In this document: positions 3,586 through 62,877 of the stretch, one piece after another
Numbering within the stretch: position 1 is the stretch's first letter
Layout of the letters: each line of letters opens with the position of its first letter
DNA from: Candidatus Goldiibacteriota bacterium
GTDB lineage: Bacteria > Oederibacteriota > PGYV01
NCBI GenBank assembly: GCA_016937715.1
Contig: JAFGWA010000050.1
Coordinates: 75,311-138,334 of the forward strand
Direction: 5' to 3'
DNA length: 63,024 bases
The notes under the pieces: model-generated
Told to the model about the DNA's origin: nothing
Seen by the model: only the letters and a program-made list of their open reading frames with translations
The model's database searches: none
Made by a program: the position numbers and the translations under genes

Positions 3586-3953
3586 CAAAAAAATTCATAT
3601 GCATCAGATGCCCCAAAGGGTGCGAAATAACCACCACGCTTGACGGCAGCGGCGTCATAACAGAAATTACCGGCAACAACTGCAAACTTGGCGTTGATTA
3701 TGTAAAAGCGGAAGTAACCGACCCGCGCCGCACACTTACCACAACCGTGGAGGTAATTGGAGGAGAGCTGCCTTTATGCCCTGTCTGGACAGAATCACCT
3801 GTCCCTAAGGATAAAATAATGGAACTTGCAGATGCATTAAGGACAATAAAAGTAACCGCCCCGGTGAAGATAAATCAGATTATCCTTGAAAACGCGCTGG
3901 GGTCGGGAATAAATGTGGTAGCGGCAAGAGAAATAAAGAGCACTATCCCATAA
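3582..3953 (+). CDS. Small Cys-rich DUF1667-like protein that usually trails this oxidoreductase pair
   Basis: FICIRCPKGCEI Cys motif; ATGA start/stop overlap with upstream gene. Confidence 0.6.
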   Translation: MTKKFICIRCPKGCEITTTLDGSGVITEITGNNCKLGVDYVKAEVTDPRRTLTTTVEVIGGELPLCPVWTESPVPKDKIMELADALRTIKVTAPVKINQIILENALGSGINVVAAREIKSTIP

Positions 3954-3978
3954 ACTTTTATCCCATATCCCATAAATA
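3944..3978 (+). repeat. ATCCCATA-type motif block: TATCCCATAAAC followed by the 21-mer TTATCCCATATCCCATAAATA (3958-3978)
   Basis: The same 21-mer recurs perfectly at 43456-43476 and inverted at 4376-4396; 19/21 nt recur at 53344-53362. Confidence 0.8.
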
Positions 3979-4065
3979 AAACCGCAGCTTGGCAGCTATG
4001 TGGCTTGGAAGTGAAAACCAAAAACATCAAAATTCTAGATTCGAAAATTAGATTAACACATGCGG

Positions 4066-4261
4066 GGGTTGGGTGTGTTTTTTCAGGGTGTGCCGCGCAA
4101 GCACAGTGCCTATACGGCAGGGGCGGTTTAATGCTTCGGCGGCAAATCCGTATCTGCGGGAGTTCCCCATTGTCAATGACATTAACATAGTGCTGATTTC
4201 AAGATTGTTTACCTTCAAGAATACCAATTTGCGGCGCGCCCTGAAAAAATATACCCAACCC
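4066..4261 (+). repeat. Copy A of a ~197-nt MITE-like / long-hairpin element
   Basis: Start GGGTTGGGTGTGTTTTTTCAGGGTGTGCCGCG pairs with end CGCGGCGCGCCCTGAAAAAATATACCCAACCC. Shares an internal core (AATGAC.TTAAC, CAAGAATACCAATT.GCGGCG) with copies at 6411-6607 and 39551-39749. Confidence 0.85.
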
Positions 4262-4287
4262 TGCAGGGCGGCCTGGAAGAAAAATCG

Positions 4288-4330
4288 CGAGGGACGGATG
4301 CACAGAGGGACAGAGGGACGGAAGTAAAAC
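4288..4330 (+). repeat. G-box repeat (GAGGGACGGATGCACAGAGGGACAGAGGGACGGAAGTAAAAC)
   Basis: Seven related copies in the window (4288, 39413, 39757, 43484, 43592 inverted, 60247, 61651). Confidence 0.85.
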
Positions 4331-4375
4331 TAAATACTTCAATTAAACTTTCTGACATCATGATAGTTTATGGTC

Positions 4376-4396
4376 TATTTATGGGATATGGGATAA
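4376..4396 (-). repeat. Perfect inverted copy of the 21-mer TTATCCCATATCCCATAAATA
   Basis: The reverse complement of 4376-4396 is identical to 3958-3978. Confidence 0.85.
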
Positions 4397-4415
4397 TAAT
4401 CTATGGGTTAAAAAC

Positions 4416-5420
4416 TCACCATTTTGCTTCGTGTTTTTCTGTTACGCCGTACGCTTCTTTGATAATATATTTCTTTTTTCCGTCCTTTATATATCCTGAA
4501 AATCTGCCAAACGGCTGGGTATAAACGCTTTTTATTAAAAGGACATTGATATTGGCAGCCCTTTGCCCTTCCGGTTTAAACACAATATTTACGTTTTTAT
4601 TTTCCACTTTCCACTCTTTCATCATATCTTTTTCATCGTAGCAAAAATTTGTTATTCCGGCGTCAAACCGCCTGCCGTTAATCCAGAACGCGTTTTCAGA
4701 GTGTCCGTTTTTATTTATGCCGCGGGAAAAATTAAAGCTGATATTATTACCTTTTGTGTCCGTTCCGCACCCTGACGCCCAGTCCCAGACAGTACGCCTT
4801 TGTAAAACGCCAAACGAAAAATCCATACTGCCGGCAGGTATGGGTTTATCAATGACATATACCATCCCCTCAATGTTCATAGCACCCTTAACCTTCATTC
4901 CGCATTCTTTCATTGTATAGTTAAAGCCTTGATTACCTTCCATTGTCACAAGATTTAAGCTGTCCGCAAAGCGCGTAAACGTTATGTCAATTTTAGCTTT
5001 TTTATGAATTTCGCATTTAACCAAAGCCTCTTTTGCGGTTAATATAACCTTCGCGTCAGCCCTTGAATTTCTAAATTTAAATTCCCCATCAGACGCGCTT
5101 CCCGTAAATTTTGTATTTAACGCGAACGGGACAAGAAAATCATATTTTTTTATGCTTTTATCTTTTCTGTCAAAAACATACAGGAATAATTCAGAAAGAT
5201 ATCCGGCGTGGACAATTGCCATGCCAAAAATAAGATCTTTACAGTATATTCCGGTAAACAGCCATCTTTTATGGCGGAAAATTTCCATTAATTTTCTTCC
5301 CAACGGCTGCATTTTAAACTTGCCCGGCAGCACATATTGATTAATATTAAGGCTTTCTATAGGCCCTTTATGAAAACCAAAAACAGGTTCTCCGTTATCA
5401 CCTATTAATAAGTTTTTCAT
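4416..5420 (-). CDS. Hypothetical protein, 334 aa (possibly DUF2804-like; not verifiable here)
   Basis: Long ORF. I prefer the ATG at 5420 (MKNLLIGDNG...), preceded by a GGGGG RBS, which avoids overlap with the upstream gene. The track ORF start at 5504 is probably an over-extension. Confidence 0.6.
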   Translation of the reverse strand: MKNLLIGDNGEPVFGFHKGPIESLNINQYVLPGKFKMQPLGRKLMEIFRHKRWLFTGIYCKDLIFGMAIVHAGYLSELFLYVFDRKDKSIKKYDFLVPFALNTKFTGSASDGEFKFRNSRADAKVILTAKEALVKCEIHKKAKIDITFTRFADSLNLVTMEGNQGFNYTMKECGMKVKGAMNIEGMVYVIDKPIPAGSMDFSFGVLQRRTVWDWASGCGTDTKGNNISFNFSRGINKNGHSENAFWINGRRFDAGITNFCYDEKDMMKEWKVENKNVNIVFKPEGQRAANINVLLIKSVYTQPFGRFSGYIKDGKKKYIIKEAYGVTEKHEAKW

Positions 5421-5443
5421 ATTAACCCCCTGATACTGACCCC

Positions 5444-6286
5444 TTATTTTTTCCACTTTGTGTTCTGAATTCCGCCGCCTTTTTTTACAGTCTCTGTCAT
5501 CCACTTATAAATATCCGCGAAAATCTTCTTTCTGTCTTTTTCTATTGTAAGCGCGTGATATGTATTTTCATATTTAATAAGGCGTTTTTCAGATTTGATT
5601 TTACCAAATATACTTTCCATTGATTTTGTGTTAATCAGATAATCCTGATCCGCTATCAGAAACAGCGCGGGTATTTTTATACTGCCGGTTTTAAACCCCG
5701 CCTTAATCTGTTTTAAGAGAATTTCCCTAAGCGGGCCTGCCGCCGCAAAACGGTGCTCTTTTTTCTCTTTTTTAAGCCACTGCAAAACCGATTTATCGTG
5801 GGTAAGCTCCTCGCTTTTAAACGGCATCGCAAAAGGCCTTTTGGGATTGATGACAGAGTTTAAAAAGATATTTAACCTGTAGCCAATACTCATCTTCATA
5901 TTGTCCATATACGCAGGCGAAACTTCAATAACTCCGCTGTAATTCTGGTCATATTCAATAAGGTTAATGTGTGATATTAACCCGCCCATAGATTCGCCGA
6001 TTATAAAAACAGGCGCGTTTGGATTTTCGCTTATTGCCATGGCTTTTAGCGCGGCAATGTCCCTGTAATAAACCTTAAAAGATTTCGCATAACCCGGTTC
6101 CTGCGCAAGTACACCATAACCTTTAAGTTCAACGGCATAAACCGCGATTTTTTTCGTGTTCATAAATTCAGCAAGAAATTTCCACCTGTCAGTATGCGCC
6201 CCCATTCCGTGAACCGCGATGATGACCGCTTTAGGTTTTTTTACCCCCCACTTCCTGAAATAAATCCCGTTTTTTTCTTCAGGCAT
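5444..6286 (-). CDS. Alpha/beta hydrolase, lysophospholipase/monoglyceride-lipase-like
   Basis: HGMGAHTDRW oxyanion region and nucleophile elbow GESMGG; GGAGGG RBS. Confidence 0.8.
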   Translation of the reverse strand: MPEEKNGIYFRKWGVKKPKAVIIAVHGMGAHTDRWKFLAEFMNTKKIAVYAVELKGYGVLAQEPGYAKSFKVYYRDIAALKAMAISENPNAPVFIIGESMGGLISHINLIEYDQNYSGVIEVSPAYMDNMKMSIGYRLNIFLNSVINPKRPFAMPFKSEELTHDKSVLQWLKKEKKEHRFAAAGPLREILLKQIKAGFKTGSIKIPALFLIADQDYLINTKSMESIFGKIKSEKRLIKYENTYHALTIEKDRKKIFADIYKWMTETVKKGGGIQNTKWKK

Positions 6287-6410
6287 AGCACCCTCCAGGG
6301 AATGTATTTGTTTCCATAATTATTATAACATAAATTATAAAGACTGCGGCTCAGCGGCTCGGCAGATAGGCGGATCATAATACAATCGAACTGCAGTAAC
6401 AAACAAATAA

Positions 6411-6607
6411 GGGTTATGTGTGTTTTTTTAGAAGCGCCGCGCAAGTTTACTATATATGCGGCAGGACGGATTTAATGCCACGACGGCAGATTCGGATGTT
6501 GCGCGAGCCCCCGATTGCCAATGACGTTAACCTCTCTGATGATTTCAAGCTTGTTTGGATGCAAGAATACCAATTCGCGGCGTGAACTAAAAAAATACAC
6601 ATAACCC
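6411..6607 (+). repeat. Copy B of the ~197-nt MITE-like / long-hairpin element
   Basis: GGGTTATGTGTGTTTTTTTAGAAGCGCCGCG ... CGCGGCGTGAACTAAAAAAATACACATAACCC; same orientation and core as copies A and C. Confidence 0.85.
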
Positions 6608-6684
6608 TTATTAAAGATGTCCCCGCTTCTTTCGCTCATATATTCGCTTCATCGCGTGGATTTCCGCTCGCAAGCTCGCTCCAA

Positions 6685-6712
6685 CCGCGGGCTGAAGACC
6701 CGCGTCTACCAA
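6685..6712 (+). repeat. REP-like hairpin unit CCGCGGGCTGAAGACCCGCGTCTACCAA
   Basis: GCGGG/CCCGC stem plus a GTCTACCA tail; near-identical units at 39816, 60308 and 61703. Confidence 0.8.
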
Positions 6713-6746
6713 AACAAAATCAAAATAATTTAAACTGCAAAAAAAC

Positions 6747-8558
6747 CTAGGCCTGTTCTTCGGCTTTTAGCTTTGATGTTATTTTATCCATCTCTTCTAT
6801 CATAACTTCAAGTTCCCTGTACCCGTTGTCCATTTTTTTGCGGAACTCGTCATATTCGGCTTTTAACTGCTGAATTATGTCTTTTTCACCGTTGGTATAG
6901 GCGTCAGCCAGTTTTATGTTAAGCGCTTCCATAAACTCTTCATTTTCATCTATCTTTTTCTCCGCTTCGGTTATCTTTGCCGCGATTCTCTTATGCTGTT
7001 TTTCCAGCTCTTCGCGCGTGCTTTTCTGCTTTATGCTGTCTTTTTCAACTCTCTGTTTCTTTGGTTTCTTTTCGTCTTCTTCCCATCCTTCTTTATCAAG
7101 AAACTCCTGATATGACCCTTCAAAAACAGAAACTTTATCCCTGTTAAAAACAATAAGCCTGTTGGCAAGGTGGTGCAGAAAAAGCTCGCTGTGCGTTACT
7201 ATGATAACAGCGCCGTCAAAGTTATCCAGCGCCAGCACCATAGAATCGCACGACTCTATGTCAAGATGGTTTGTTGGTTCGTCAAGCAATAATATATTCG
7301 CGGGGTTAAGCAGAATTTTACCCAGCGATACGCGGCTTTTTTCCCCGCCGGAAAGTACGGATATCTGTTTTAACGCAAGGTCGCCGGAAAACATCATAGC
7401 GCCGCAGACCTTTCTTACTTCGCTGTATTTTAAATCCGGCCTTACTTTTGAAAGTTCCCTTTCAATTGTAAGCGACGAATCAAGCCTTTCTATATTGGTC
7501 TGCCCAAAATACCCGGCACTGGCTTCAGGATGTAATTTTACGGTTCCTTCTTTTGGCTCCAACTCGCCCACTAAAAGGCGCAGTAAAGTGGACTTTCCTT
7601 TGCCGTTTTTTCCAATGACGCATATCCTGTCCCTTTTTTCCACGTCAATTGAAAGGTCTTCTATAAGCATCCTGTCATCTGTATATCCAAAAGAAAGGTT
7701 CTTTACCCTTAAGGGCATCTTAGCTTCAAAATTTTTGTAATTGAACTTAAAGCCAAGCTCCTGGATGTTTGAAAGTTCGTCCTTTTTTTCCATTTTATCA
7801 AGCGCTTTAATACGCGACTGTACCATGGAAGCGCGGGTGGCCTGCGCGCGGAAACGGTTTATAAAATCTTCCGCTTCTTTTCTTATCTTCTGTTCTTTCA
7901 TCCTTGTAATTTCATAAATTTCCTCTTCGGCGGCTATCTGGCTGAAAAGTTTTTCTGTGGGCCCCTGAATTTTCTTTATCTTGTTCCTGTGTATCGCCAT
8001 TGTGTGCGTGGTGACAGTATCCATAAATTCCCTGTCGTGGGTGATTATTAAAAGTTCATTTTCCCTGCGCTGCAGAAACTTTGCCAGCCAGCGGATGGAT
8101 ATGATATCCAGATAGTTTGTAGGCTCGTCAAGCATTAAAAGGTGCGGTTCTGCAAGAAGCACTTTGGCAAGATTTAAACGCACCTGAAACCCGCCGGAAA
8201 ATTCCGCCGGCGACCTTAACTGGTCGTCTTCAGAGAATCCAAGTCCGGACAGCATTTTTTCCGCCTTCCATACCTGGTCTTTTTCATCCTCGCTTAAACC
8301 AAGGCATGCTTCCAAAAGCACGGTTGGCTGGGTAAAATCAAGGTGCTGCTTTAAATAACCTATAGTGTAATTCTTGGGTAACGAAAGCGTGCCGCTGTCC
8401 GGTTTAAGTTCTCCGGAAATAAGTTTAAACAGCGAGGTCTTGCCGGAGCCGTTTCTGCCCACAAGGCCGATACGCTCCCCGCTGTGAATATTAAACGTTA
8501 CATCGTCCAATATCATCTGTTCGCCGAATTCCAAAGTCAAATTGTTTACCTGAAGCAT
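6747..8558 (-). CDS. ABC-F family ATPase (two ABC domains, no membrane domain, K/E-rich coiled-coil tail)
   Basis: Two Walker A sites (GRNGSGKTS, GKNGKGKST) and two signatures (FSGGFQVRLNLA, LSGGEKSRVSL). Confidence 0.9.
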   Translation of the reverse strand: MLQVNNLTLEFGEQMILDDVTFNIHSGERIGLVGRNGSGKTSLFKLISGELKPDSGTLSLPKNYTIGYLKQHLDFTQPTVLLEACLGLSEDEKDQVWKAEKMLSGLGFSEDDQLRSPAEFSGGFQVRLNLAKVLLAEPHLLMLDEPTNYLDIISIRWLAKFLQRRENELLIITHDREFMDTVTTHTMAIHRNKIKKIQGPTEKLFSQIAAEEEIYEITRMKEQKIRKEAEDFINRFRAQATRASMVQSRIKALDKMEKKDELSNIQELGFKFNYKNFEAKMPLRVKNLSFGYTDDRMLIEDLSIDVEKRDRICVIGKNGKGKSTLLRLLVGELEPKEGTVKLHPEASAGYFGQTNIERLDSSLTIERELSKVRPDLKYSEVRKVCGAMMFSGDLALKQISVLSGGEKSRVSLGKILLNPANILLLDEPTNHLDIESCDSMVLALDNFDGAVIIVTHSELFLHHLANRLIVFNRDKVSVFEGSYQEFLDKEGWEEDEKKPKKQRVEKDSIKQKSTREELEKQHKRIAAKITEAEKKIDENEEFMEALNIKLADAYTNGEKDIIQQLKAEYDEFRKKMDNGYRELEVMIEEMDKITSKLKAEEQA

Positions 8559-38339: not shown

Positions 38340-38819
38340 TTATAATATTTTAACCTGGTCCATTGATTTTACTATTATCTCCACTTTACCTTTATAATCC
38401 TTGACCCTTCCTTCAACCCTTACTTTTTTATTAAGAAAGTATTTTTCCGGAGTTTCAGGGAACTTAACAAAATCAGAGGCAAATATCACCAGAGAAAGCC
38501 CCTGTTTATAATTTTTATCAAAATTTAAAAAACATACCTTACCGCTGTTATACGACCCGACAATAACACCTTCTGTCACCACATACCTGCCTAAATATGA
38601 AGCGGCATCCTGCGGCTTTATCTTTACCATCTCTTTTGTTTCAAAATCCGAAACGGAACGGGTACTTGCCGGGAGCGCGGCTGAAATTTCAGAGGAAGCC
38701 GGGCTTATTTTTGATACCTTTTTTATCTCATCAATTATTAAAAATTTCACCGCAATAATTATAAGCAGAACCGCAAGGGTTACAAACCCTGTTTTTTTAT
38801 AAAAATCCCCATTGTTCAT
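38340..38819 (-). CDS. Membrane-anchored hypothetical protein; the C-terminal half looks OB-fold-like
   Basis: N-terminal TM (FVTLAVLLIIIAVKFLII). ATGA overlap with the upstream nuclease gene fixes the start at 38819. Confidence 0.55.
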   Translation of the reverse strand: MNNGDFYKKTGFVTLAVLLIIIAVKFLIIDEIKKVSKISPASSEISAALPASTRSVSDFETKEMVKIKPQDAASYLGRYVVTEGVIVGSYNSGKVCFLNFDKNYKQGLSLVIFASDFVKFPETPEKYFLNKKVRVEGRVKDYKGKVEIIVKSMDQVKIL

Positions 38820-39346
38820 CTCATTTCCCTCCCACCGGCTCCCTGTTCCCACACGCCTTTTTTAAACTGCCTGGCAATGTTTTCAAGCATAAGGAATTCT
38901 TTGGTCCTGGAGCATTCGGATTTGGCGTAAACATAAGCGTATCCGCTTTTAACCAGCTCCGCGTTTACCAGCACACCTTCTTTTGTATAAACGTATGCCA
39001 GAAGCCTTCCATATTTATCATTCATATTAAGGGTGTCATATTCTATTATTACTTCTTTCCCCTGTATAAGATTTTTAACATACGCTTTTGCTTCTTTTCC
39101 GAATTTCTGCACGGGCAGGTCAGGGTGATGAAGTTCCGGGGTGTCAATACCCAGAAGCCTTACAAGATTATCGCGTTCTTTTATCTTTATGGTATCCCCG
39201 TCTATAACCTGTTCAGTTACAGCGGTAAACTTTACCCATCTTTTCTTTTCATTCGCGGCTTTAATGGCAGTATTACCAAGCCATACAATTCCAAGCACCG
39301 CGGCAGTAAGAATGATTACAGAAACATAAAAATTTTTATTTTTCAT
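38816..39346 (-). CDS. Membrane-anchored/secreted thermonuclease (staphylococcal nuclease, SNase family)
   Basis: VIDGDTIKI, VRLLGIDTPE, FGKEAKAYV, GRLLAYVY, NAELVKSGYA. Confidence 0.85.
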   Translation of the reverse strand: MKNKNFYVSVIILTAAVLGIVWLGNTAIKAANEKKRWVKFTAVTEQVIDGDTIKIKERDNLVRLLGIDTPELHHPDLPVQKFGKEAKAYVKNLIQGKEVIIEYDTLNMNDKYGRLLAYVYTKEGVLVNAELVKSGYAYVYAKSECSRTKEFLMLENIARQFKKGVWEQGAGGREMR

Positions 39347-39412
39347 ATATTAACCCCTGTTATTTTTTAAAACTAAAATATTATAACATAAATTTGACAC
39401 ACTGAGGGACGG

Positions 39413-39446
39413 ATGCACGGAGGATCGGAGGGACGGAAGTAAAACC
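39413..39446 (+). repeat. G-box repeat
   Basis: TGAGGGACGGATGCACGGAGGATCGGAGGGACGGAAGTAAAACC. Confidence 0.8.
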
Positions 39447-39460
39447 AGATACCAAATCAA

Positions 39461-39492
39461 CTGCCGCGCCCTAAAAGGGCGGGCCTACCAAG
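39461..39492 (+). repeat. REP-like hairpin unit (variant CGCGCCCTAAAAGGGCGGGCCTACCA)
   Basis: Hairpin plus a CTACCA tail, preceded by ATACCAAATCAACTGC as at 39801-39818. Confidence 0.75.
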
Positions 39493-39550
39493 GCATTAAA
39501 ACAAGAAATCAAAACAAAAACCGTACATGTTGCTGCGGGTTTCAAAACAG

Positions 39551-39749
39551 GGGTTGGGTGTGTTTTTTCAGTGCGTGCCGCGTAAGCATAGTATGTATGC
39601 AGCAGAAACATTTTAATGCCACGCCGGCAGATTCGTAAGTGCCACGAATTCCCGGCTGCCAATGACGTTAACCTGCCTGTGGATTTAAAGTTTGTTTGGA
39701 TGCAAGAATACCAATTTGCGGCGCGTACTGAAAAAATATACCCAAGCCC
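39551..39749 (+). repeat. Copy C of the ~197-nt MITE-like / long-hairpin element
   Basis: GGGTTGGGTGTGTTTTTTCAGTGCGTGCCGCG ... CGCGGCGCGTACTGAAAAAATATACCCAAGCCC. Confidence 0.85.
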
Positions 39750-39756
39750 TGTAAAA

Positions 39757-39801
39757 CCGAGGGACTGATGCACGAAGGGACAGAGGGACGGAAGTAAAAA
39801 C
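39757..39801 (+). repeat. G-box repeat
   Basis: CCGAGGGACTGATGCACGAAGGGACAGAGGGACGGAAGTAAAAAC. Confidence 0.8.
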
Positions 39802-39815
39802 AAATACCAAATCAA

Positions 39816-39896
39816 CTGCCGCGGGCTAAAGACCCGCGTCTACCAGAACATAAAACCAAATCAAAAACACGCGCCCTAAAAGGACGCGGCTACCAG
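39816..39896 (+). repeat. Two REP-like hairpin units separated by an A/C-only linker
   Basis: CTGCCGCGGGCTAAAGACCCGCGTCTACCAG (39816-39846) and CGCGCCCTAAAAGGACGCGGCTACCAG (39870-39896). Confidence 0.8.
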
Positions 39897-39949
39897 ATCT
39901 AAACCAACTTTCCAAGCTGCCGAGCTTCTGAGCTGCTGAGCCGCCTTCT

Positions 39950-40840
39950 TTACCCGCGGGGATGGAACTTCTTATGCATGTTTTTTAACCTGCTTCTGTC
40001 AATATGCGTGTAAAGCTGCGTTGTGGAAATATCGGAATGGCCCAGCATTTCCTGCACGCTTCGCAGGTCAGCGCCGCCTGCCAGAAGGTGCGTGGCAAAA
40101 CTGTGCCTGAAAATATGCGGATATACGTCTTTTTCTATCTTTTCTTTTTTTGCGTATCTTTTTATAAGCTTCCAGACGCCCTCGCGGGTGAATTTCCCGC
40201 CGCGTTTTGTGACAAAAAGATTAGGACAGAACTTTTTTACAATCCCCATACGGACTTCAAGATAGCTTTTAATAGCGTCCACCACATATTCCCCTATCGG
40301 GACAAGCCTTTCCTTGGACCCTTTTCCAAAACACCTTATCACGCGTTCATCCATATCAACATCGGTAAGTTCCAGGTTTACAAGTTCTGACACGCGCACT
40401 CCGGATGAATATAACAGTTCCATTATAGCCCTGTCCCTTTTTCCTTCCGGCTTTGACATATCCGGCGATGACAATAAAGCGTCTATGTCCTGTTTTGACA
40501 GCACTTCCGGCATTTTTTTACGCGTTTTAAAAGTTTCAAGGTTTTCAAAAGGGTTTGTATCCGCGGCTTTTGTTTTTATCATATATTTATAAAGCCCCCG
40601 CAGGCTGACCAGCGCGCGCGCTATTGAAAGCGGGGAATATTTACGCGACTTCATGTAGAAAATAAAATCCACAATTGAATCTTCTGTTACTTCTATTTCT
40701 TTTCTCTCTTCCATATATTTAAGAAATATCTCTATGTCAGACGCGTAAGCCGAAGCGGTGTTTTTTGAAAGCCCTTTTTCATAAATGGTGTACCCTTTAA
40801 ATTTTTCTCTGATACTTTTTATGGAATCAGTCCCGCCCAT
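39950..40840 (-). CDS. XerC/XerD-family tyrosine recombinase
   Basis: RHSFATHLLAGGADLRSVQEMLGHSDISTTQLYTH with the catalytic Tyr; SAM-like N-terminal domain. Confidence 0.85.
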   Translation of the reverse strand: MGGTDSIKSIREKFKGYTIYEKGLSKNTASAYASDIEIFLKYMEERKEIEVTEDSIVDFIFYMKSRKYSPLSIARALVSLRGLYKYMIKTKAADTNPFENLETFKTRKKMPEVLSKQDIDALLSSPDMSKPEGKRDRAIMELLYSSGVRVSELVNLELTDVDMDERVIRCFGKGSKERLVPIGEYVVDAIKSYLEVRMGIVKKFCPNLFVTKRGGKFTREGVWKLIKRYAKKEKIEKDVYPHIFRHSFATHLLAGGADLRSVQEMLGHSDISTTQLYTHIDRSRLKNMHKKFHPRG

Positions 40841-43404: not shown

Positions 43405-43455
43405 GTCCCTGTGTTCCCCTTAAACTGTTTTTAATAAAACTTATCCAATAACCTG

Positions 43456-43476
43456 TTATCCCATATCCCATAAATA
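43456..43476 (+). repeat. Perfect copy of the 21-mer TTATCCCATATCCCATAAATA
   Basis: Identical to 3958-3978. Confidence 0.85.
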
Positions 43477-43483
43477 TAAGAAA

Positions 43484-43630
43484 CCGAGGGACAGATGCAC
43501 AGATGTACGGATGTTCAGCAAAACCGGCTTTTTCAGCCGTACTCTGTCGCTTATGCTTATCTGCTTATAGCTTAAACCGCTGTCTTTCTATTTCCTTCCG
43601 TCCCTCTGTCCCTCTGTGCATCCGTCCCTC
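43484..43630. repeat. Inverted pair of G-boxes flanking a GCTTAT-rich spacer
   Basis: 43484-43525 (+) and 43592-43630 (-; reverse complement = GAGGGACGGATGCACAGAGGGACAGAGGGACGGAAGGAA). Confidence 0.8.
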
Positions 43631-43635
43631 TATTA

Positions 43636-51603: not shown

Positions 51604-51609
51604 ATTTAA

Positions 51610-51988
51610 AACGGCAGTGTAAGCCGGATTCTGTGTCCCCGTTGCCGGGGTGCCAGCCATTAATCTTAGCGGTCTACCCGGAGCTTAAGAGATGAAGCAT
51701 CCCTGCCCCTTTGCTTGCGCAAAGAGATCTGCCCCCTATTTGACCTTGCTCCCGGTTGGGTTTTCCGTGCCGTGTTGCTTACGCTTCACGCGGTGGGCTC
51801 TTACCCCGCCTTTTCACCCTTACCCCGCAATTGCTTACGAGGCGGTCTGTTTTCTGTGGCACTGTCCTTTATGCCGCGCTTTCGCGTGCCATACCCCGCT
51901 GTTCTAGTGGGAACCGTGCTCCATGGAGTCCGGACTTTCCTCGGAAGAATCGTCTGAATATTCCTCCGTGGCCAGCTGCACTGCCGTT
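51610..51988 (-). ncRNA. rnpB: RNase P RNA, bacterial type A
   Basis: The minus strand contains GAGGAAAGUCCGGACUCCAUGG, GUAAGGGUGAAAAGGCGGGGUAAGAGCCCACCGCG, GGAGCAAGGUCAAAUAGGGG, CCGGGUAGACCGCU and ACAGAAUCCGGCUUA. P1 pairing is CGGCAGUG/CACUGCCG. Ends are approximate (+/- 10 nt). Confidence 0.93.
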
Positions 51989-53328: not shown

Positions 53329-53362
53329 CTATCCCATAACCATTTATCCCATATCCCATAAA
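53329..53362 (+). repeat. ATCCCATA-type motif block (CTATCCCATAAC + TTATCCCATATCCCATAAA)
   Basis: Same two-part organisation as 3944-3978. Confidence 0.75.
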
Positions 53363-53406
53363 CCGGAAAAGAACGCCCTGAAGTCACGGCAAACCATAAA
53401 ACAACG

Positions 53407-54712: not shown

Positions 54713-55795
54713 TTACCTATAATCCTTGCCCAGTTTATATGCTCTTTTTTTATTAGACTCGCCAACCGCTTCTAAAAAACCTTTTGAAACCCAGTCTTTA
54801 GCCAGATAAGCCGCCATTCGGGGCTTGATTTTCAAAACTTTAGCAATGTCATTACTTGTTATCATGTCCGAAGATTCAAAAAGAGGGTATATTTCTTTCG
54901 CCCTTCTGTCCAGTTTTTTATAACTGTCCATACTTTTTTTATTTATGCCGGGAGAATAAGTTTCTGCCGTTTCTTTCAGTTCAATAAAAACTTCAAGCAG
55001 TAATTTAACAAAATATTCAACCCATTTTGTTAAATCCGCAGTTTCCCGTCCTTCATAATAGTTTGGATGCCTGGCTGTTGATAATTCTTTATAATATGAC
55101 TCTATATCTTTTGCGTGATATTCTTCCATTGAAAACATCCCGTTTAATCCAAAATTTCCTTTCATAAGTACAAAAGTTGCCAGCAGCCTTGCTGTTCTGC
55201 CGTTTCCGTCATAATACGGATGTATTGTTACAAACTGATAATGCACAAGCGCGGCTATTACCGGCGCGGGAACTTTCGAAAGTTCCGCCCATTTCACCCA
55301 ATTAACAAGTTCTTTCATCAGATTAGGTACATCTTTTGCTTCCGGAGGAAGATATACAATATAACCGGTACCTGCTTCTTTTATTACATTTTGTTCTGCT
55401 CTGTACGGCGTGGGTTTTGATTTTTTTCCTTTTTCAACCAGGGCATGAACGCTTTTTATCAGTTCTTCCGTAAAAACTGCCTGATTTTCTGCCAGTCTTT
55501 CAATTTCAATAAGGGCATTCCAGTAATTTTCAACTTCTTTAACATCCCGTTCTCTTCCATAGAGATTTTTTCTGTTTTCCTCTATAACATCCTTTGTCTG
55601 TTTTAAAGACAGCCTGTTTCCTTCAATTCTTGTCGAATAATGAGTGGACCGCAGCCGCGCCTCATGTTTTAATTTCGCTTCAATTTTTGGCGCAAGAATA
55701 ATCTTAGATATGGCATCCCTAAAAGACGCCAGTTTCATCAGCGAATTTACAATCACATTGGATAATTTATAATTTGGTTCCCACTTACTGTTCAT
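54713..55795 (-). CDS. Fic-family protein (AMPylase-type) with N-terminal inhibitory-helix motif and C-terminal winged HTH
   Basis: Fic motif HPYYDGNGRTARLL; inhibitory motif STRIEG ([ST]xxxE[GN]). Confidence 0.85.
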   Translation of the reverse strand: MNSKWEPNYKLSNVIVNSLMKLASFRDAISKIILAPKIEAKLKHEARLRSTHYSTRIEGNRLSLKQTKDVIEENRKNLYGRERDVKEVENYWNALIEIERLAENQAVFTEELIKSVHALVEKGKKSKPTPYRAEQNVIKEAGTGYIVYLPPEAKDVPNLMKELVNWVKWAELSKVPAPVIAALVHYQFVTIHPYYDGNGRTARLLATFVLMKGNFGLNGMFSMEEYHAKDIESYYKELSTARHPNYYEGRETADLTKWVEYFVKLLLEVFIELKETAETYSPGINKKSMDSYKKLDRRAKEIYPLFESSDMITSNDIAKVLKIKPRMAAYLAKDWVSKGFLEAVGESNKKRAYKLGKDYR

Positions 55796-56456: not shown

Positions 56457-57203
56457 TCAATAAAAAGAATATCTTATTGGATTTGCAGCTCCTCTTTTTC
56501 TATATTTATCAGGAATTCGTTTGTTAATATATATACTTTCAACAGAATTTTCAGCCTTTTCACCAATAAAACCATACCTACCTGGTCTATTTAGATCAAA
56601 TAGAGGGAAATTAGTTTTATTTGCTTCTTTCCATTCTATAATTTTGTAGACTGCTTTAATTATTCCTCTAATTACTGAAACGGCATACTCAGCCTTTTGT
56701 GCTTTTTCTTTATTTATTTTCCATGCATATCTGGTAGCATCATATAACGTTCTTTCTTCAGAACTTCTATTTACAGTAATCATGATAATTTTATGTTTAA
56801 AAACTGCTTCTTCTGACTTGTATTTACTAATTATTTCAACAGCATTCATTGAACCAAAATAGTTGCTGTCATAACCGGCAACTTTGTTGGATGCACCTGG
56901 ATATGCATCAATCAAAGCAGCTTCAACATGTCTTGCTGTTAATTCATCCATACCATGTTTATGTATTACATGTATAACTTTTAGACCTGAATTTTCAATA
57001 TCTCTTATCGTTTGATATTTTCCGTCTATTTCATCGAAATTTTTTTCTTTTGTAGCGCATTTAATATGCTGAAATACTCTATTCCCCTTTCCTCGTCCCA
57101 CATAAAAAGTATCACCATTTCTCGGGTCAATTAATCTATAAACATAGTTTTTTAATTGTTTGCATACTTCTTCCGGAAAAGCAGAAACATCATATTGATT
57201 CAC
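56457..57203 (-). CDS. GIY-YIG-domain protein with an uncharacterised C-terminal half (248 aa)
   Basis: YVYRLIDPRNGDTFYVGRGKGNRVFQH matches the GIY...YIG...R core; GTG start behind GGGGAGGG; last gene of the low-GC island. Confidence 0.65.
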   Translation of the reverse strand: MNQYDVSAFPEEVCKQLKNYVYRLIDPRNGDTFYVGRGKGNRVFQHIKCATKEKNFDEIDGKYQTIRDIENSGLKVIHVIHKHGMDELTARHVEAALIDAYPGASNKVAGYDSNYFGSMNAVEIISKYKSEEAVFKHKIIMITVNRSSEERTLYDATRYAWKINKEKAQKAEYAVSVIRGIIKAVYKIIEWKEANKTNFPLFDLNRPGRYGFIGEKAENSVESIYINKRIPDKYRKRGAANPIRYSFY

Positions 57204-57263
57204 ATGCCCTCCCCAATAAATTATTTATGCTTTTTTCAAAAAAATATTTTCATAGATATTTAA

Positions 57264-58385
57264 TTATAAACCCCTACTGTTTAAAAAATTCTCATAACTA
57301 TTAATTTCTGCGAAATTTATTTCATATAACTCATCATTAATTTTGTCAATTCTAACTGAATCAATTCCAATTATTTGTAATTTATCGTAGTTTAGAATTT
57401 CTTTAGGTTTCAATGTCAAAACGTCTCTAAGTATCCATTTACCTAATTCTTTATTCGAAGTTGACATTAACGCCTTATTGTTATCTTGACATATTTTAGA
57501 TTCCATTAAAATACCATCTGGTAATTTCAAATTAAATTTCGTATCTCTCTTAGGGAAAAAATCAGGATACTTTTTATTTATTTCTGACGGTATCGGAATA
57601 TAAACTTCATCAAGATCGCGCTTTCTTCCGCCTGCATTCCATTGATTTAGACCGCTTTTCTCATATACTTTTTTATCATGACCATACAACGGCAGATAAA
57701 TCGTTTCTTTAATTAAGTTAGCAGTTTCCTTTTCTGCCGGTTTAGCAGCAAGCAATTTTTCAAGTTCTTGAAGCGGGTCGTCTATTAACGATACCTTAAT
57801 TTTGTATTTGAAAGAATCTGTTATAAACCTTTTTGTAAGAGTACTTTTAGAAGTTAAAAACGAATAATCATTTTTATCATCAGAAAAACTGATTGAACCG
57901 GTGTTTTTAGAGATTTTCTTTATTTTATTTAAATTAATATCATCCATACTTTCTTCATGAATATAAAAATACCCTTTATCTCTGACAACACAATGATATA
58001 TTGAGTTATCAAACTTATAGACATTCCGCGTCATTTCAAGCCTTTTATTTCTAAGCCCGGCTATTTTAATTATCATTTTTTCTGCATTCAATTTATCATA
58101 TGTATTTCTATCGTTATTAAATTCTGCGATTTTTTGGAACGTTTTAGAATTGTTAATTAAAAATGTTTTTAAACCCACTCCAATATTTTTTACTTTTGCA
58201 TCAGCCGACAAATCACTCCTAGACAGATCCTCGGCATTAAAAGCTCTGCAGAATATTTTCTCAGCAATCCTATAATAAAGATAAGGCGTGTCAGATTCAG
58301 AAAAGAGATTTGAAAGACTTCCGACAATCATTAGGTATTTTTCATAGAGATCAATCTGCTTTTTGTCAGCCCTCTCAATAAACAT
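57264..58385 (-). CDS. Putative type II restriction endonuclease (family not recognised)
   Basis: The ATG at 58385 lies 2 nt after the methyltransferase stop. The call rests on the operon context C-vsr-M-this gene; I could not name a catalytic motif. Confidence 0.5.
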   Translation of the reverse strand: MFIERADKKQIDLYEKYLMIVGSLSNLFSESDTPYLYYRIAEKIFCRAFNAEDLSRSDLSADAKVKNIGVGLKTFLINNSKTFQKIAEFNNDRNTYDKLNAEKMIIKIAGLRNKRLEMTRNVYKFDNSIYHCVVRDKGYFYIHEESMDDINLNKIKKISKNTGSISFSDDKNDYSFLTSKSTLTKRFITDSFKYKIKVSLIDDPLQELEKLLAAKPAEKETANLIKETIYLPLYGHDKKVYEKSGLNQWNAGGRKRDLDEVYIPIPSEINKKYPDFFPKRDTKFNLKLPDGILMESKICQDNNKALMSTSNKELGKWILRDVLTLKPKEILNYDKLQIIGIDSVRIDKINDELYEINFAEINSYENFLNSRGL

Positions 58386-58387
58386 AT

Positions 58388-59548
58388 TTACACCCAAGCC
58401 TTTACTATACTTTCTGCAATTTTTTCTATTACAGGAACTGACACCGAATTGCCAAACTGTTTATATAAATGCGAATCCGCGACAGAAGGAAGGACAAACT
58501 TTTTTGGAAATCCTTGAAAATTAGCACATTCCCTTGGTGTTATCTTTCTTATTCCATCCTTATCGAGTATCAAAGGTACATTGTGCCCGCCCATACCCAT
58601 ATTAGCAGTAAGTGTCGGGCATACTTTATTCTTATTCTCTCTGACATATTTACGCCGCCACTGGTAGACAGTATCATTTTTTGTAATGTCTTTAATTAAT
58701 TTAGGATAAAGTGTTTTGTCATTATAATAGTATTTTGTATCAATCTTTTTTTCCAGACAGTCATGTATTTGTTTAGTTCTTTTAATTTTCTCGGGATATT
58801 TGAATTGTTTTGAATTATTTTCATCTAAGAATCCTACTATATATATACGTTCTCTATTCTGCGGAACATCAGCGTATTCCATTGTGTTTAAAACTTTAGA
58901 AGTAATAAAATAACCTGCATTTTTTAGCTCTTTAGATATAACTTCAAAAGTACGCCCTTTGTCGTGTCCTTTAAGATTTTTAACATTTTCAAGCAGTATT
59001 GATTTAGGCTGTTTCTCTTTTAGTATTCTTACTATATCAAAGAATAAATTACCTCTCCCTTTATCTTCAAAACCCTTTTTATATCCTGCTATTGAAAAAG
59101 GCTGGCATGGAAATCCCGCAACCAAGACATCATGTTCAGGTATGCATTTTGCATCTATTCTTGTTATATCTCCAAAAGGCACTTCCCCAAAATTCACTTT
59201 ATACGTAAGCTGCGCAGATCTATCCCATTCAGACGTAAAAACACATCTTCCTCCTGCGTTCTGAAATCCAATACGCATCCCGCCAACACCGGCAAACAAA
59301 TCTATGAATGTAAATTTATGTTCTTTCGGAGGAGAAAAAGGAAAAGTAATAGGCATATCTGCTTTAAATAACTCCAATTGCCCTGCATGTTCTAATATTT
59401 TCTTCGCTTCATTCTTATAATATTTCTCAGCATCAGTCCCCTTGTTTAAATAATAATGGGTTACTGAAGCAAGTTTTTCATGCTCTTCATTTGCTAAAAA
59501 ATCTTCAATATTACTTAAAAACTGCTTATAGTTGCCCTTTTTTTTCAT
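58388..59548 (-). CDS. DNA (cytosine-5)-methyltransferase
   Basis: Motif I FIDLFAGVGGMRIGF, IV GFPCQPFS, VI LLENVKNL, VIII QNRERIYIVG, X GNSVSVPV. Confidence 0.95.
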   Translation of the reverse strand: MKKKGNYKQFLSNIEDFLANEEHEKLASVTHYYLNKGTDAEKYYKNEAKKILEHAGQLELFKADMPITFPFSPPKEHKFTFIDLFAGVGGMRIGFQNAGGRCVFTSEWDRSAQLTYKVNFGEVPFGDITRIDAKCIPEHDVLVAGFPCQPFSIAGYKKGFEDKGRGNLFFDIVRILKEKQPKSILLENVKNLKGHDKGRTFEVISKELKNAGYFITSKVLNTMEYADVPQNRERIYIVGFLDENNSKQFKYPEKIKRTKQIHDCLEKKIDTKYYYNDKTLYPKLIKDITKNDTVYQWRRKYVRENKNKVCPTLTANMGMGGHNVPLILDKDGIRKITPRECANFQGFPKKFVLPSVADSHLYKQFGNSVSVPVIEKIAESIVKAWV

Positions 59549-59963
59549 TTTTTACTCTCACAGCCTCATTAATTTTTTTTATTGCTTTATCCGGCTTATC
59601 TATAAGTTCTTTTGCCCAAAACCTAAGAACTTTCCATCCATCTTGTCGTAATTTTTTATTAACCAGCTTATCTCTTTTAATGTTTCGTTCTATTTTTTCC
59701 AGCCAATATTTCCTATTTGTTTTAATAGACTTTTTTTGTTTTTCCCAATTTTTTCCGTGAAAAAACTCGCTATCGCAAAAAATTGCTATATTAAAATCTT
59801 TTAAAATAAAATCAGGTTTACCAAGAATTCTCTTATTCTGTCTGGTAAATTTAATATTCTGTTTTCTAAGCAGTGAAGCAAGAGTCACTTCAACTTTAGT
59901 ATTCTTAGACTTAATTCTAGACATACAATAACTTCTTTGTTTTTTTGTTAAATTATCAGCCAT
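59526..59963 (-). CDS. vsr: Very-short-patch repair endonuclease (Vsr)
   Basis: SRIKSKNTKVEV, GKPDFIL, IAIFCDSEFFHG, YWLEKIERNIKRD, GWKVLRFW. The ATG at 59963 lies 2 nt after the C-gene stop. Confidence 0.9.
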   Translation of the reverse strand: MADNLTKKQRSYCMSRIKSKNTKVEVTLASLLRKQNIKFTRQNKRILGKPDFILKDFNIAIFCDSEFFHGKNWEKQKKSIKTNRKYWLEKIERNIKRDKLVNKKLRQDGWKVLRFWAKELIDKPDKAIKKINEAVRVKNEKKGQL

Positions 59964-59965
59964 TG

Positions 59966-60166
59966 TCAAAAAAGGTCCTTAATTTTTACCCCTAAAGCCT
60001 TTGCCACTTTCTCTATATTCACAACGGCCACATTACGCTTGCCTCTCTCTATCCCGCTTATATATGTGCGGTCAAGGCCGGCAAGTTCTGCAAGCCGTTC
60101 CTGTGAAATGTCTTTCTTCTCTCTTAATTCCCTAACTTTAATGCCAAATTTTTGTTTTATATCCAT
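59966..60166 (-). CDS. XRE-family HTH controller (C) protein of the R-M operon
   Basis: ISQERLAELAGLDRTYISGIERGKRNVAVVNIEKVAKAL; a C-box-like dyad pair sits just upstream. Confidence 0.8.
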   Translation of the reverse strand: MDIKQKFGIKVRELREKKDISQERLAELAGLDRTYISGIERGKRNVAVVNIEKVAKALGVKIKDLF

Positions 60167-60246: not shown

Positions 60247-60289
60247 CCGAGGGACGGATGCACGGATGGTCAGAGGGACGGTTTAAACC
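60247..60289 (+). repeat. G-box repeat
   Basis: CCGAGGGACGGATGCACGGATGGTCAGAGGGACGGTTTAAACC. Confidence 0.8.
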
Positions 60290-60307
60290 AAGTACCCACC
60301 AAAACAA

Positions 60308-60410
60308 CTGCCGCGGGCTAAAGACCCGCGTCTACCAGAACGAAACCAAAATTAAGACAAAACGAAACCAAAACATAAAACCACGCGCCCTGAAAGGACG
60401 CGGCTACCAC
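60308..60410 (+). repeat. Two REP-like hairpin units separated by a 45-nt A/C-rich linker
   Basis: CTGCCGCGGGCTAAAGACCCGCGTCTACCAG (60308-60338) and CGCGCCCTGAAAGGACGCGGCTACCAC (60384-60410). Confidence 0.8.
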
Positions 60411-60429
60411 AGCAAAACCAGAACAAAAC

Positions 60430-61517: not shown

Positions 61518-61650
61518 AAAACCCTCCGAATTATAATTTTGCGCATAAATGCACATCTTTGATAGACGTATTAAAACATAAAAATGATGCAGCAGATATA
61601 TAAAAAACAGATGCTTGGACGCTTAGATGTTTGGAGGCTTGGCTTATAAA

Positions 61651-61733
61651 CCAGAGGGACAGAGGGACGGAAATAAACCAAACATCCGGAGATCCAAATC
61701 AACTGCCGCGGGCTAAATACCCGCGTCTACCAG
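61651..61733 (+). repeat. Short G-box (61651-61679) + linker + REP-like hairpin (61703-61733)
   Basis: CCAGAGGGACAGAGGGACGGAAATAAACC ... CTGCCGCGGGCTAAATACCCGCGTCTACCAG. Confidence 0.8.
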
Positions 61734-61803
61734 TACAATTACAAATAAATACACCCTTTGTATTTCATTAATTCATTTTATTTCCGGTTATTATAGATTG
61801 TTT

Positions 61804-62877
61804 TCATTCGCTTCCCGTTTTTATATACGCGGTTGCCCTGCCGCTGCCGGTTTTTTTAATAAGTTTAAGTTTTACAAGCCTTGCAAGAGACTGGCCTGCG
61901 GTTTCCCTTTTCATCTTAAGTTTGCTTACAATAATCTTATTTGTTATTGTTTCATATATTTCAAAGAGATTCAGAATTGCCCTGTGTTTTTCTGAAATTA
62001 AAAGAAGAGGATTTGACCCCTTAGCGGTTTCTTTTACTGTTTCAGCCTGTTTTGCCAGTACATCAAGTATAAAATCAAGCCATGGTATTATATTTTCCGC
62101 CTTTTTACCCCTGTTCTTCTGGCTTTTTCTTAAAGCAAGGTAGTATGACGCTTTATTATCTTCTATTATTTTTTCAAGAGACGCGTATCGGGCGTATGAA
62201 TACCCGCTTTTTAAAAGCATAAGGTTTAAAACAGCCCTGCTAAGCCTTCCGTTGCCGTCCTGAAACGGGTGGATAGAAAGAAATTCAAGGTTAAAATTTG
62301 CGGCTATCAGCAGCGGATGAAAAATCCCGCTATCATACGCTTTCACAGCCCAGTCAATAAGCTCCCTTGTTTCTTTCTGCGCAAGATAAGGTTCTGTAGG
62401 GTTAAAAATAACAGATTCATTGCCGTTGTTATCCCTTGCCACAACGGCATTTGAAAGAAACTTATATTTTCCTTTATGTTTTTTGTCTTTTTCAGAAAAC
62501 TTAAGCAAAACATTATGAAAACCAAGGATAGTATTTTCTGTTATCTGTATTTCATTATAATTATCAAATATGGTTTCAAGTAATTCCGCGTAACCCGCAA
62601 CCTCCTGCGAATCCCTGTCCTTCAACCTTGATACTTTAAGCCCGTTAAGAAGTTTTTTAACCTGCTCATCAGACATCTTTGAACCTTCTATCCTTGTTGA
62701 TGATCCGACCGAGGATACAATTGTGCTCTGTTTTAAGTTGCCAAGTATCTGCGGTCCAAGCCCCGGAGCTGCCTTAAACCACCCTTTAAATTCATCTATT
62801 TTTGCCACTTTACCGTAAATACGCGCGGCATCATTTCCGGAAATGGCATTTAATCGCCGTGTAAGGTTTGATTCCAT
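61804..62877 (-). CDS. Fic-family protein (second paralog) with inhibitory-helix motif and C-terminal winged HTH
   Basis: HPFQDGNGRLSRAVLNL; STRIEGSKMS; AAGGAGG RBS. Confidence 0.85.
   Translation of the reverse strand: MESNLTRRLNAISGNDAARIYGKVAKIDEFKGWFKAAPGLGPQILGNLKQSTIVSSVGSSTRIEGSKMSDEQVKKLLNGLKVSRLKDRDSQEVAGYAELLETIFDNYNEIQITENTILGFHNVLLKFSEKDKKHKGKYKFLSNAVVARDNNGNESVIFNPTEPYLAQKETRELIDWAVKAYDSGIFHPLLIAANFNLEFLSIHPFQDGNGRLSRAVLNLMLLKSGYSYARYASLEKIIEDNKASYYLALRKSQKNRGKKAENIIPWLDFILDVLAKQAETVKETAKGSNPLLLISEKHRAILNLFEIYETITNKIIVSKLKMKRETAGQSLARLVKLKLIKKTGSGRATAYIKTGSE

Follow-up and report, generated by a model that had tools for sequence, protein, structure and literature searches.

A 205-nt intergenic hairpin repeat with one-strand pairing from a candidate bacterial phylum

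Known structured repeats and the element of this study

Structured repeats of the REP, ERIC, Correia, BOX and REPIN types are known from few cultivated groups of bacteria, and whether they spread selfishly or serve a host function is still debated. In this study, we analysed a stretch of 63,024 nucleotides from a Candidatus Goldiibacteriota bacterium (contig JAFGWA010000050.1, hereafter the window), in which a non-coding element of about 205 nt stands in three intergenic spacers, and compared it with relatives elsewhere, which bring the family to at least 15 distinct copies in the window, one genome of GTDB and several digester and sludge metagenomes. The two ends of the element would close into a 35-bp helix that encloses a conserved core of about 135 nt, and pairing in this helix is preserved for just one of the strands, which speaks for selection on a single-stranded form. 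As a family the element is new, but it belongs to a class already known, that of structured intergenic repeats in bacteria, and does not represent a system of a new kind; in form it is closest to hairpins of the ERIC and Correia type, and in evolutionary behaviour closest to REPINs (PMC3049150; PMC3116915). The reading that we favour, and to which we give an even chance of being right, is that it is a lineage-specific module of mosaic arrays, retained by the host and needed as a single-stranded hairpin of the + strand, most likely as RNA.

Like ERIC sequences (also called IRU), the 127-bp imperfect palindromes of enterobacteria, the element is intergenic, non-coding and multi-copy and makes a long hairpin. 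It is, however, about 80 nt longer, and its perfect 35-bp closing helix surrounds a core that is not itself a hairpin. It has no match in Rfam, a result that does not bear on ERIC, which is a family of DNA repeats; the comparison made here is one with the description of ERIC. The effects of ERIC on transcripts depend on orientation (PMC3049150), and ERIC lie within transcripts in either orientation, whereas the present element is always antisense to its neighbours and belongs to a host lineage unrelated to the enterobacteria. Correia elements of Neisseria (CREE or NEMIS) have inverted repeats which, once transcribed, form a duplex that is cut by RNase III (PMC3049150), and have been reviewed along with bacterial MITEs (miniature inverted-repeat transposable elements; PMC10969869, PMC3184786). 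In common with them and with other bacterial MITEs, the element falls in the size class of 100-200 bp and ends in inverted repeats of some 26-35 bp, but the TA target duplication and the two orientations of Correia elements are not seen in it.

REPINs are hairpins in which compensatory changes are common, which lack target duplications, persist vertically for long times and lie in ordered extragenic clusters (PMC3116915). The element resembles them in all these respects, and REP-like GTAG hairpins occur in the same arrays; it differs in that its arms are not REP units, that a conserved core of 135 nt takes the place of the spacer, and that its strand logic is unlike transposition through the lagging-strand template. 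Its arrays recall the BIMEs of Escherichia coli and the BOX elements of pneumococci, in which several short modules stand in fixed order in intergenic regions and at the 3' ends of genes, but the modules are unrelated in sequence, and a member of 205 nt is far larger than any BIME linker motif. The likeness to 6S RNA and the bacterial Y RNAs is one of shape only, namely about 200 nt with ends forming a long closing helix around an open core; no covariance model of these families matched at E = 10, the element has about 30 copies per genome against one to four, and its helix lacks their typical bulges.

The terminal helix and the conserved core

The three copies in the window, all on the + strand, are copy A (4062-4265, 204 nt, arms 4062-4096 and 4231-4265), copy B (6407-6611, 205 nt, arms 6407-6440 and 6577-6611) and copy C (39547-39752, 206 nt), whose 5' arm at 39547-39581 and 3' arm at 39718-39752 correspond to columns 3-37 and 174-208 of our alignment A6. 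The initial annotation had placed three intergenic copies of one orientation at these loci, and so we found them, with a mean column identity of 85%; the coordinates given here are widened by 4 nt outward at each end, following the extended stem described below. The end motif GGGTTNNGTGTGTTTTTT has five occurrences in the window, where chance alone predicts 0.13, while nhmmer at maximal sensitivity returned no fourth copy in the window. All three fold well beyond shuffled controls on the + strand (z from -5.7 to -8.7).

Relatives were sought with a stretch of 20-21 bases from the most conserved block in 185,579 species genomes and in metagenome contigs. The pattern matched a single species genome, the unclassified metagenome-assembled genome JAKQNO01 of GTDB, with three copies, and also 22 contigs of metagenomes that came from digesters, activated sludge and fermenters. 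Removal of duplicates and chance matches left 13 full or nearly full copies, synteny added two more, and these 15 distinct copies make up alignment A6, on which the stem statistics are based.

The inverted termini had already been remarked on; they are real and reach 4 nt further out than described (ACAG...CTGT), which gives 35 pairs. Over the 15 copies, 95.4% of the cells in this stem hold canonical pairs, and shifting the partner column lowers the figure to 36-55%. Eight of the 35 pairs have changed on both sides, a degree of covariation reached by none of 500 shuffles. One such case, a change of GG to AT on the left arm of copy B that is matched by CC to AT on the right, holds in the larger sample (columns 12-13 with 198-199), and the same 'AT' subtype is carried by L004, a fourth copy, from another genome.

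The strand asymmetry of wobble pairs proved stronger than first noted, with 58 G-U or U-G cells at 13 stem positions against two A-C cells. Two positions switch between C-G and U-G, each state being present in about half of the copies, and another passes through G-C, G-U and A-U; variable positions thus alternate only among states that pair on the + strand, and do so repeatedly in different copies. The consensus energy computed by RNAalifold is -56.8 kcal/mol for the + strand and -33.5 for the - strand, and the minimum free energy of the + strand is the lower one in 15/15 copies, by 18 kcal/mol on average. The closing helix is perfect on the + strand, and only that strand forms it perfectly; on the - strand it breaks into three short pieces, and an RNA in the sense of the genes would carry four to five A-C mismatches in it. 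The adjacent D6 hairpin (see below) has its wobble pairs on the gene-sense strand, opposite to those of the element, and the asymmetry is therefore specific to the 205-nt element and not regional. A C>T bias of the non-template strand, arising from gene-sense transcription, would place the wobbles on the other strand. The asymmetry is best read, from the aligned copies, as selection on the single-stranded form of the + strand.

Constraint in the interior is of another kind, consisting of sequence blocks and of length. In copy C the interior spans 136 nt (39582-39717) and holds the conserved blocks TTTAATGC, CGGCA, TGCCAATGA..TTAAC and CAAGAATACCAATT. Such blocks had been pointed out at the start and are present, but CAAGAATACCAATT is less invariant than it appeared: copies found without this pattern read CAAACATACCGATT and CAAGCACACCAATT, differing at 2-3 positions, and its conservation is partly an ascertainment effect because it served as the search pattern. 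The earlier suggestion that the interior continues as an imperfect long hairpin did not hold up. Folds of single sequences disagree with one another, and the best candidate helices (columns 57-61/112-116, 81-88/93-100 and 151-154/159-162), though 82-92% paired, show no change on both sides. A pairing of TTAATG with CGTTAA, which would cross the nested interior helices, found no support in the evidence, and a hammerhead-like CUGAUGA occurs in copy B only and is not conserved. The elements are all 204-206 nt long although paralogs are only 72-86% identical, with arm-to-arm spacing of 170-172 nt in every copy.

Two 1-nt indels at columns 122 and 132 (about 39666 and 39676 in copy C) are mutually exclusive in 12/15 copies, so that total length is kept, as a constraint on spacing would explain, or a weak one on reading frame. 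The latter would be expected if the functional unit were a small protein gene, encoded by a gene-sense open reading frame (ORF) of 40-59 codons (MVFLHPNKLEI...NSRHIRICRRSIK...) that is open in the same frame in about 10 of the 15 copies and co-oriented with the flanking genes. We regard this as very improbable: variation by column phase (20/18/26 and 62/67/86) has no third-position excess, copies C and B, as well as L024, L013, L019a and L034, have a disrupted or shortened frame, the ORF begins at a TTG that lacks a Shine-Dalgarno sequence, it was left uncalled by gene callers in L028 and L034, and it passes through both stem arms. The hydrophobic peptide of a type I toxin-antitoxin system (Sib/Ibs or Ldr type) was not found either, the recurrent ORF being basic, devoid of codon periodicity and broken in several copies. 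An ATG-initiated ORF on the + strand is lost in L012 and L003 and frameshifted between copies.

The initial annotation recognised no named RNA family, and covariance scans agree. Rfam 15, searched at the gathering threshold and then at E<=10, gave no credible match, families such as 6S, Y RNA-like, HEARO and OLE included; the only match on the element was to a plant microRNA precursor model (34.6 bits against a threshold of 245), a generic long-hairpin match. Rfam scans of copies A and B gave nothing, and a scan for tRNA and tmRNA gave no hits. As for transcription, metatranscriptomes of the window's own study hold almost nothing from the window organism, while sludge and biofilm metatranscriptomes contain low-depth contigs of a sister species. 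One of these, 197 nt long and identical to L022:5784-5980, covers two thirds of the element plus 55 nt of its 3' flank, with a depth of 3.4 that is like that of neighbouring genes. The element region is thus probably transcribed, in assemblies that are unstranded, and the RNA of this contig runs past the 3' boundary of the element.

Mosaic arrays, gene orientation and persistence

The flanks of the element are themselves conserved. In about nine of the 15 copies the 5' flank is an A/T-rich module, TCGAAAATTCGAAATTCGAAAATTAGAAGAACAC, placed at a fixed distance (ATCAAAATTCTAGATTCGAAAATTAGATTAACAC at 4027-4059, + strand, before copy A). On the 3' side, the flank in nearly all cases reads GTAA..(C/T)GAGGGACGGATGCA, with which a GGA-rich purine module, D1 (CGAGGGACGGATGCACAGAGGGACAGAGGGACGGAAGTAAAAC), begins; this module follows nearly every copy and lies directly 3' of copy C at 39758-39807 on the + strand. 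D1 has four to five GGA motifs, is CCUC-rich on its other strand and also occurs alone; further copies lie at 4288-4337, 39403-39452, 43477-43526 (to 43534), 60248-60297 (to 60305) and 61637-61686, and an inverted one at about 43590-43632. Clusters of GGA are reminiscent of RNAs bound by CsrA/RsmA. On the 3' side of D1 next to copy C stand two REP-like hairpins, D2 and D6 (39807-39908, - strand), which on the gene-sense strand read GGTAGAC or GGTAGCC followed by a G+C-rich palindrome, that is, GTAG plus palindrome in the layout of REP sequences. Hairpin repeats of this D2/D6 kind were located at 6673-6724, 39452-39503, 39807-39858, 39857-39908, 60299-60350, 60377-60420 and 61694-61745, and the genome may hold a REP/RAYT system. 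The D6 hairpin at 39888-39870 is followed by a T-run and looks like a terminator of xerD; D6 copies carry gene-sense G-U wobble together with a T-run, and so resemble terminators. In the sister species (L028), a 41-nt insertion lies within the loop of the D2 hairpin next to the ortholog of copy C, opposite window position 39826.

The usual order is therefore A/T-rich upstream module, element, GGA-rich D1 and then a REP-like D2/D6 hairpin, and at L024 the upstream module stands a second time, along with a further, truncated copy of the element. The element therefore forms a single module within ordered mosaic arrays, comparable to those of BIMEs or BOX elements. Other repeats share these spacers. 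At L001, a decayed copy of the element holds two insertions of a small module, TTGGAGCGA...GCGCAAGTGTTAGGG (3016-3082 and 3165-3200), of which a reverse-complement copy lies at about 6648-6690 of the window; the double insertion means that repeat families are nested. A repeat TATCCCATAA(N6)TATCCCATATCCCATAAAT occurs at 3944-3981, 43442-43479 and 53330-53367 and inverted at about 4362-4400; two copies in inverted arrangement bracket the entire spacer of copy A, and an RNA contig of the same study joins this repeat to D1. Units of GCTTATAGC / AGCAATTAAGC form another family (window 43545-43580; L001:560-650, L003:6650-6700, L034:6865-6987) and fill the sister-genome spacer that replaces the one with copy A.

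The genes around the element are ordinary chromosomal genes, for XerD, thermonuclease, ABC-F, alpha/beta hydrolase, DUF2804, DUF1667 and RlmD. Copy C lies between xerD (39950-40840, -) and the thermonuclease gene (38816-39346, -), copy B between an ABC-F gene (6747-8558, -) and an alpha/beta hydrolase gene (5444-6286, -), and copy A between the convergent genes for DUF1667 (3582-3953, +) and DUF2804 (4416-5504, -). A link to xerD was considered, but the adjacency of copy C looks coincidental, the protein being a standard XerD and other copies having unrelated neighbours. At every locus the genes on both sides run opposite to the + strand of the element, with the gene upstream of copy A as sole exception; about ten independent loci have co-directional neighbours, all on the opposite strand, for which the probability by chance is about 0.002. 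An apparent exception at L003 was resolved, since the genes downstream, for a tRNA and a membrane protein, are on the opposite strand. At the same locus (L003:7133-7200 and 7290-7400), the minus-strand tRNA gene with its terminator is accompanied by a duplicated 3'-end fragment with a terminator 160 bp away, which looks like a scar of integration or excision.

Read in the direction of the genes, the stop codon is followed by REP-like hairpins (one with a T-run), then by D1, the element, the A/T-rich module, an extended -10 promoter (TGTTATAAT) and the next gene, and the element therefore lies mostly between transcription units. The motif ATTTATGTTATAAT (- strand, 39384-39395 and 6324-6332), just upstream of two genes adjacent to arrays and conserved in the sister species, also looks like an extended -10 promoter. 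A scan for intrinsic terminators around the three copies returned as its only terminator-like site the neighbouring D6 on the gene-sense strand. The strand that folds well points from the promoter region of the downstream gene toward the 3' end of the upstream gene.

Such strict dependence on gene direction is what a cis-element of the neighbours' transcripts would show, in which a gene-sense hairpin attenuates, terminates or stabilises the message and the wobble asymmetry is inherited from a founder copy. ERIC, BIME, Correia and BOX repeats act in this manner (PMC3049150), the gene-sense strand of the element still folds (z = -5.6), and a T/G-rich stretch, which is the A/T-rich upstream module in reverse complement, comes after its hairpin. 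The stem variants, however, alternate only between states that pair on the + strand (C-G/U-G; G-C/G-U/A-U), and do so repeatedly, beyond what inheritance from a founder would give; and the element, which comes after the terminator-like REP hairpins belonging to the upstream gene and ahead of the promoter of the next gene, is largely outside gene-sense units. We therefore place the probability of a cis-element low, at somewhat less than that of either mobile element discussed below. The proposal of selection at the RNA level stands only in part: pairing is maintained on one strand, as covariation in the helix and the ratio of G-U to A-C cells indicate, but a folding strand that is antisense to the neighbours at every locus examined cannot be a stability or processing element inside their mRNAs, and an RNA, if there is one, requires a separate transcript in the opposite direction.

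The XerD of the window shares 89% identity with its counterpart in 'Candidatus Aerophobetes bacterium ADurb.Bin490', and the relatives that come next, at about 63%, bear the labels Goldbacteria or Spirochaetia; the NCBI label for the host lineage of the element is Candidatus Aerophobota. In the sister species, whose identity with the window is 54% at 689 four-fold degenerate sites, the spacer between xerD and the nuclease gene holds the ortholog of copy C in the same place and orientation (L028:6156-6360), with 67/70 stem positions and 105/136 interior positions identical. The ABC-F-hydrolase spacer of the sister (L034) also holds the element, in the common 'GG' subtype as against the 'AT' subtype of copy B, and 'AT' recurs at the non-syntenic locus L004 in the other species. 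The element thus persists at orthologous loci across a species split in which about half of the silent sites have been replaced. On the other hand, the spacer corresponding to copy A in L034 consists of 123 bp of other repeats without the element, and a relative whose XerD is 64% identical has the genes in the same order, with spacers of 28-43 bp, and no copy in 21 kb. Judging from the loci compared, the family is confined to a narrow clade, is old within it and is not static.

The window organism was found in one freshwater/sediment study, where contig depth is 250-340 over the ends of the element and 8-9.5 over unique DNA, implying about 30 copies per genome if all of them belong to this organism. 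A single 20-mer match in IMG/VR was judged to be chance and gives no ground for a viral origin. A Logan contig ends inside copy C, and mosaic arrays of this kind break short-read assemblies of the host lineage.

Mobility is one explanation for a small, non-coding repeat with some 30 copies, and the initial annotation proposed a mobile hairpin akin to MITE and ERIC. The general type stands, as the element is a multi-copy, non-coding intergenic hairpin repeat, and a 35-bp inverted repeat is present at the ends of 15/15 copies. Classical MITE mobility does not: at boundary offsets from -4 to +4 and k = 2-9, none of the 15 copies has a target-site duplication, the best result being a 2-nt match in 6/15 within A-rich flanks, and the unit that recurs is not bounded by the inverted repeats. 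Readings of the ends as an IHF site or as a TA duplication of the Correia or IS630-like kind were rejected, the 3' TA belonging to the conserved flank and the 5' side being variable. The element thus lacks the target duplications and the discrete boundaries of a cut-and-paste MITE. Its copies may still be those of an ordinary MITE whose 35-bp termini bind a transposase encoded elsewhere, in which case the match of both ends to the same enzyme would mimic covariation and no single strand would play a role. The long terminal repeats agree with this, the GG and AT subtypes change on both arms together as if subfamilies tracked transposase specificity, the copy A locus is occupied in the window and not in the sister genome, and the insertion of other small modules into copies of the element points to a genome permissive to such DNA. 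At the copy A locus, however, the whole spacer differs and offers no clean empty site, and flanks elsewhere consist of conserved modules instead of random target DNA. Pairing on one strand (58 G-U against two A-C cells) is not what a binding site in double-stranded form would predict, and old, diverged copies, at 72-86% identity, retain perfect stems and a fixed length. Nor does the DNA sampled, about 300 kb from the window and 39 loci, hold an autonomous partner or any longer element with the same ends, arm motifs being all paired at 170-172 nt and none at distances like those of insertion sequences. Taken together, a MITE of this kind seems to us improbable.

The absence of target duplications is accommodated by a REPIN-like element of single-stranded DNA, in which a + strand DNA hairpin would be handled by a Y1 enzyme (RAYT or IS200-type) or a similar one and would persist vertically for long. 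G-T is the most tolerated mismatch in DNA hairpins, which we count in favour of this explanation, and REP-like hairpins (GTAG plus palindrome) adjoin the element in the same arrays. Compensatory hairpin changes and persistence at orthologous loci are both described for REPINs (PMC3116915). The arms, however, are not REP sequences: GGGGTTGGGTGTGTTTTTTCAGTGCGTGCCGC contains neither a GTAG-type tetranucleotide nor a short palindrome. If genes mostly follow the replication fork, the folding strand would be the leading-strand template and not the lagging-strand template used in transposition of the IS200/IS605 type. No RAYT gene was seen in the 63 kb or at the individual loci, and the 26 window proteins scanned included no transposase, reverse transcriptase or RAYT (Y1). 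We judge this explanation to be about as unlikely as the MITE. The pattern of the copies would fit an origin by recombination or gene conversion between arrays, or through a mobilising enzyme.

Proposed role of the folded strand and further features of the window

We propose that the host, or the propagation of the element itself, needs the hairpin in the single-stranded form of the + strand, which would most likely be an RNA that crosses the array opposite to the flanking genes, starting at the promoter side of the downstream gene and running toward the 3' end of the upstream one. The perfect 35-bp duplex would serve as a determinant of processing, stability or protein binding, for instance as a substrate of a double-strand-specific RNase, the conserved unpaired blocks of the core may be contact sites, and a gene-sense RNA, with its A-C mismatches, would escape processing. 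The element probably acts as a folded RNA. In a bolder version, each of about 30 loci per genome would be the gene of a multi-copy structured non-coding RNA of a new class, transcribed on its own against its neighbours, with a helix and core that recruit a specific protein or double-strand RNase and a GGA-rich single-stranded tail, and the loci would together form a dispersed RNA system retained by the host since before the split of the two species. This version strikes us as doubtful, although less so than the mobile elements considered above.

Several observations weigh against the proposal of a host-retained, single-stranded hairpin. The sample amounts to 15 copies, 13 of them found through one conserved 20-mer. 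Covariation is strong and strand-specific in the closing helix, but an exhaustive search of column pairs on both strands found no double-sided change in the three nested interior helices; the evidence for structure therefore comes from a single helix and could in part be explained by a purely DNA-level inverted repeat, which we also considered. The RNA contigs may represent either strand or contaminating DNA and show no high abundance, and the + strand transcript is one that we infer. A scan around the three copies found no sigma-70-like promoter at a consistent place upstream of the element, although the promoters of the organism's genes do resemble those of sigma-70, with an extended -10, and no U-tract follows the + strand hairpin. 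The orientation bias cannot be separated from the direction of replication. Lastly, orthologous copies are overall not closer than paralogs, so copies are replaced by, or converted to, one another, and gene conversion instead of purifying selection in place could account for part of the conservation.

Among the other features of the window, an island of low G+C content (56457-59969; 32%, compared with about 41%) carries genes for a GIY-YIG protein, an NgoFVII-like restriction endonuclease, a C5 cytosine methyltransferase and a Vsr mismatch endonuclease, and is probably a type II restriction-modification unit that has been acquired. At its inner end the stem of the element is invariant, and the sequence there, GCCGC/GCGGC, fits GCSGC, which we take to be the NgoFVII site. 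Two genes with Fic/DOC domains lie near repeat arrays (54713-55795 and 61804-62877), and a bacterial RNase P RNA of class A (51606-51988, -, 229 bits) is the sole Rfam family above threshold in the window.

With this element, a family from a candidate phylum without cultivated members joins the structured repeats of bacteria, and it combines three features: selection for pairing on one strand, strict orientation against the genes, and retention at orthologous loci despite the replacement of half of the silent sites. If the folded strand is RNA, the element would be a clean case in which sequence alone separates acting as a single strand from acting as duplex DNA, and would provide a candidate RNA family for Rfam.

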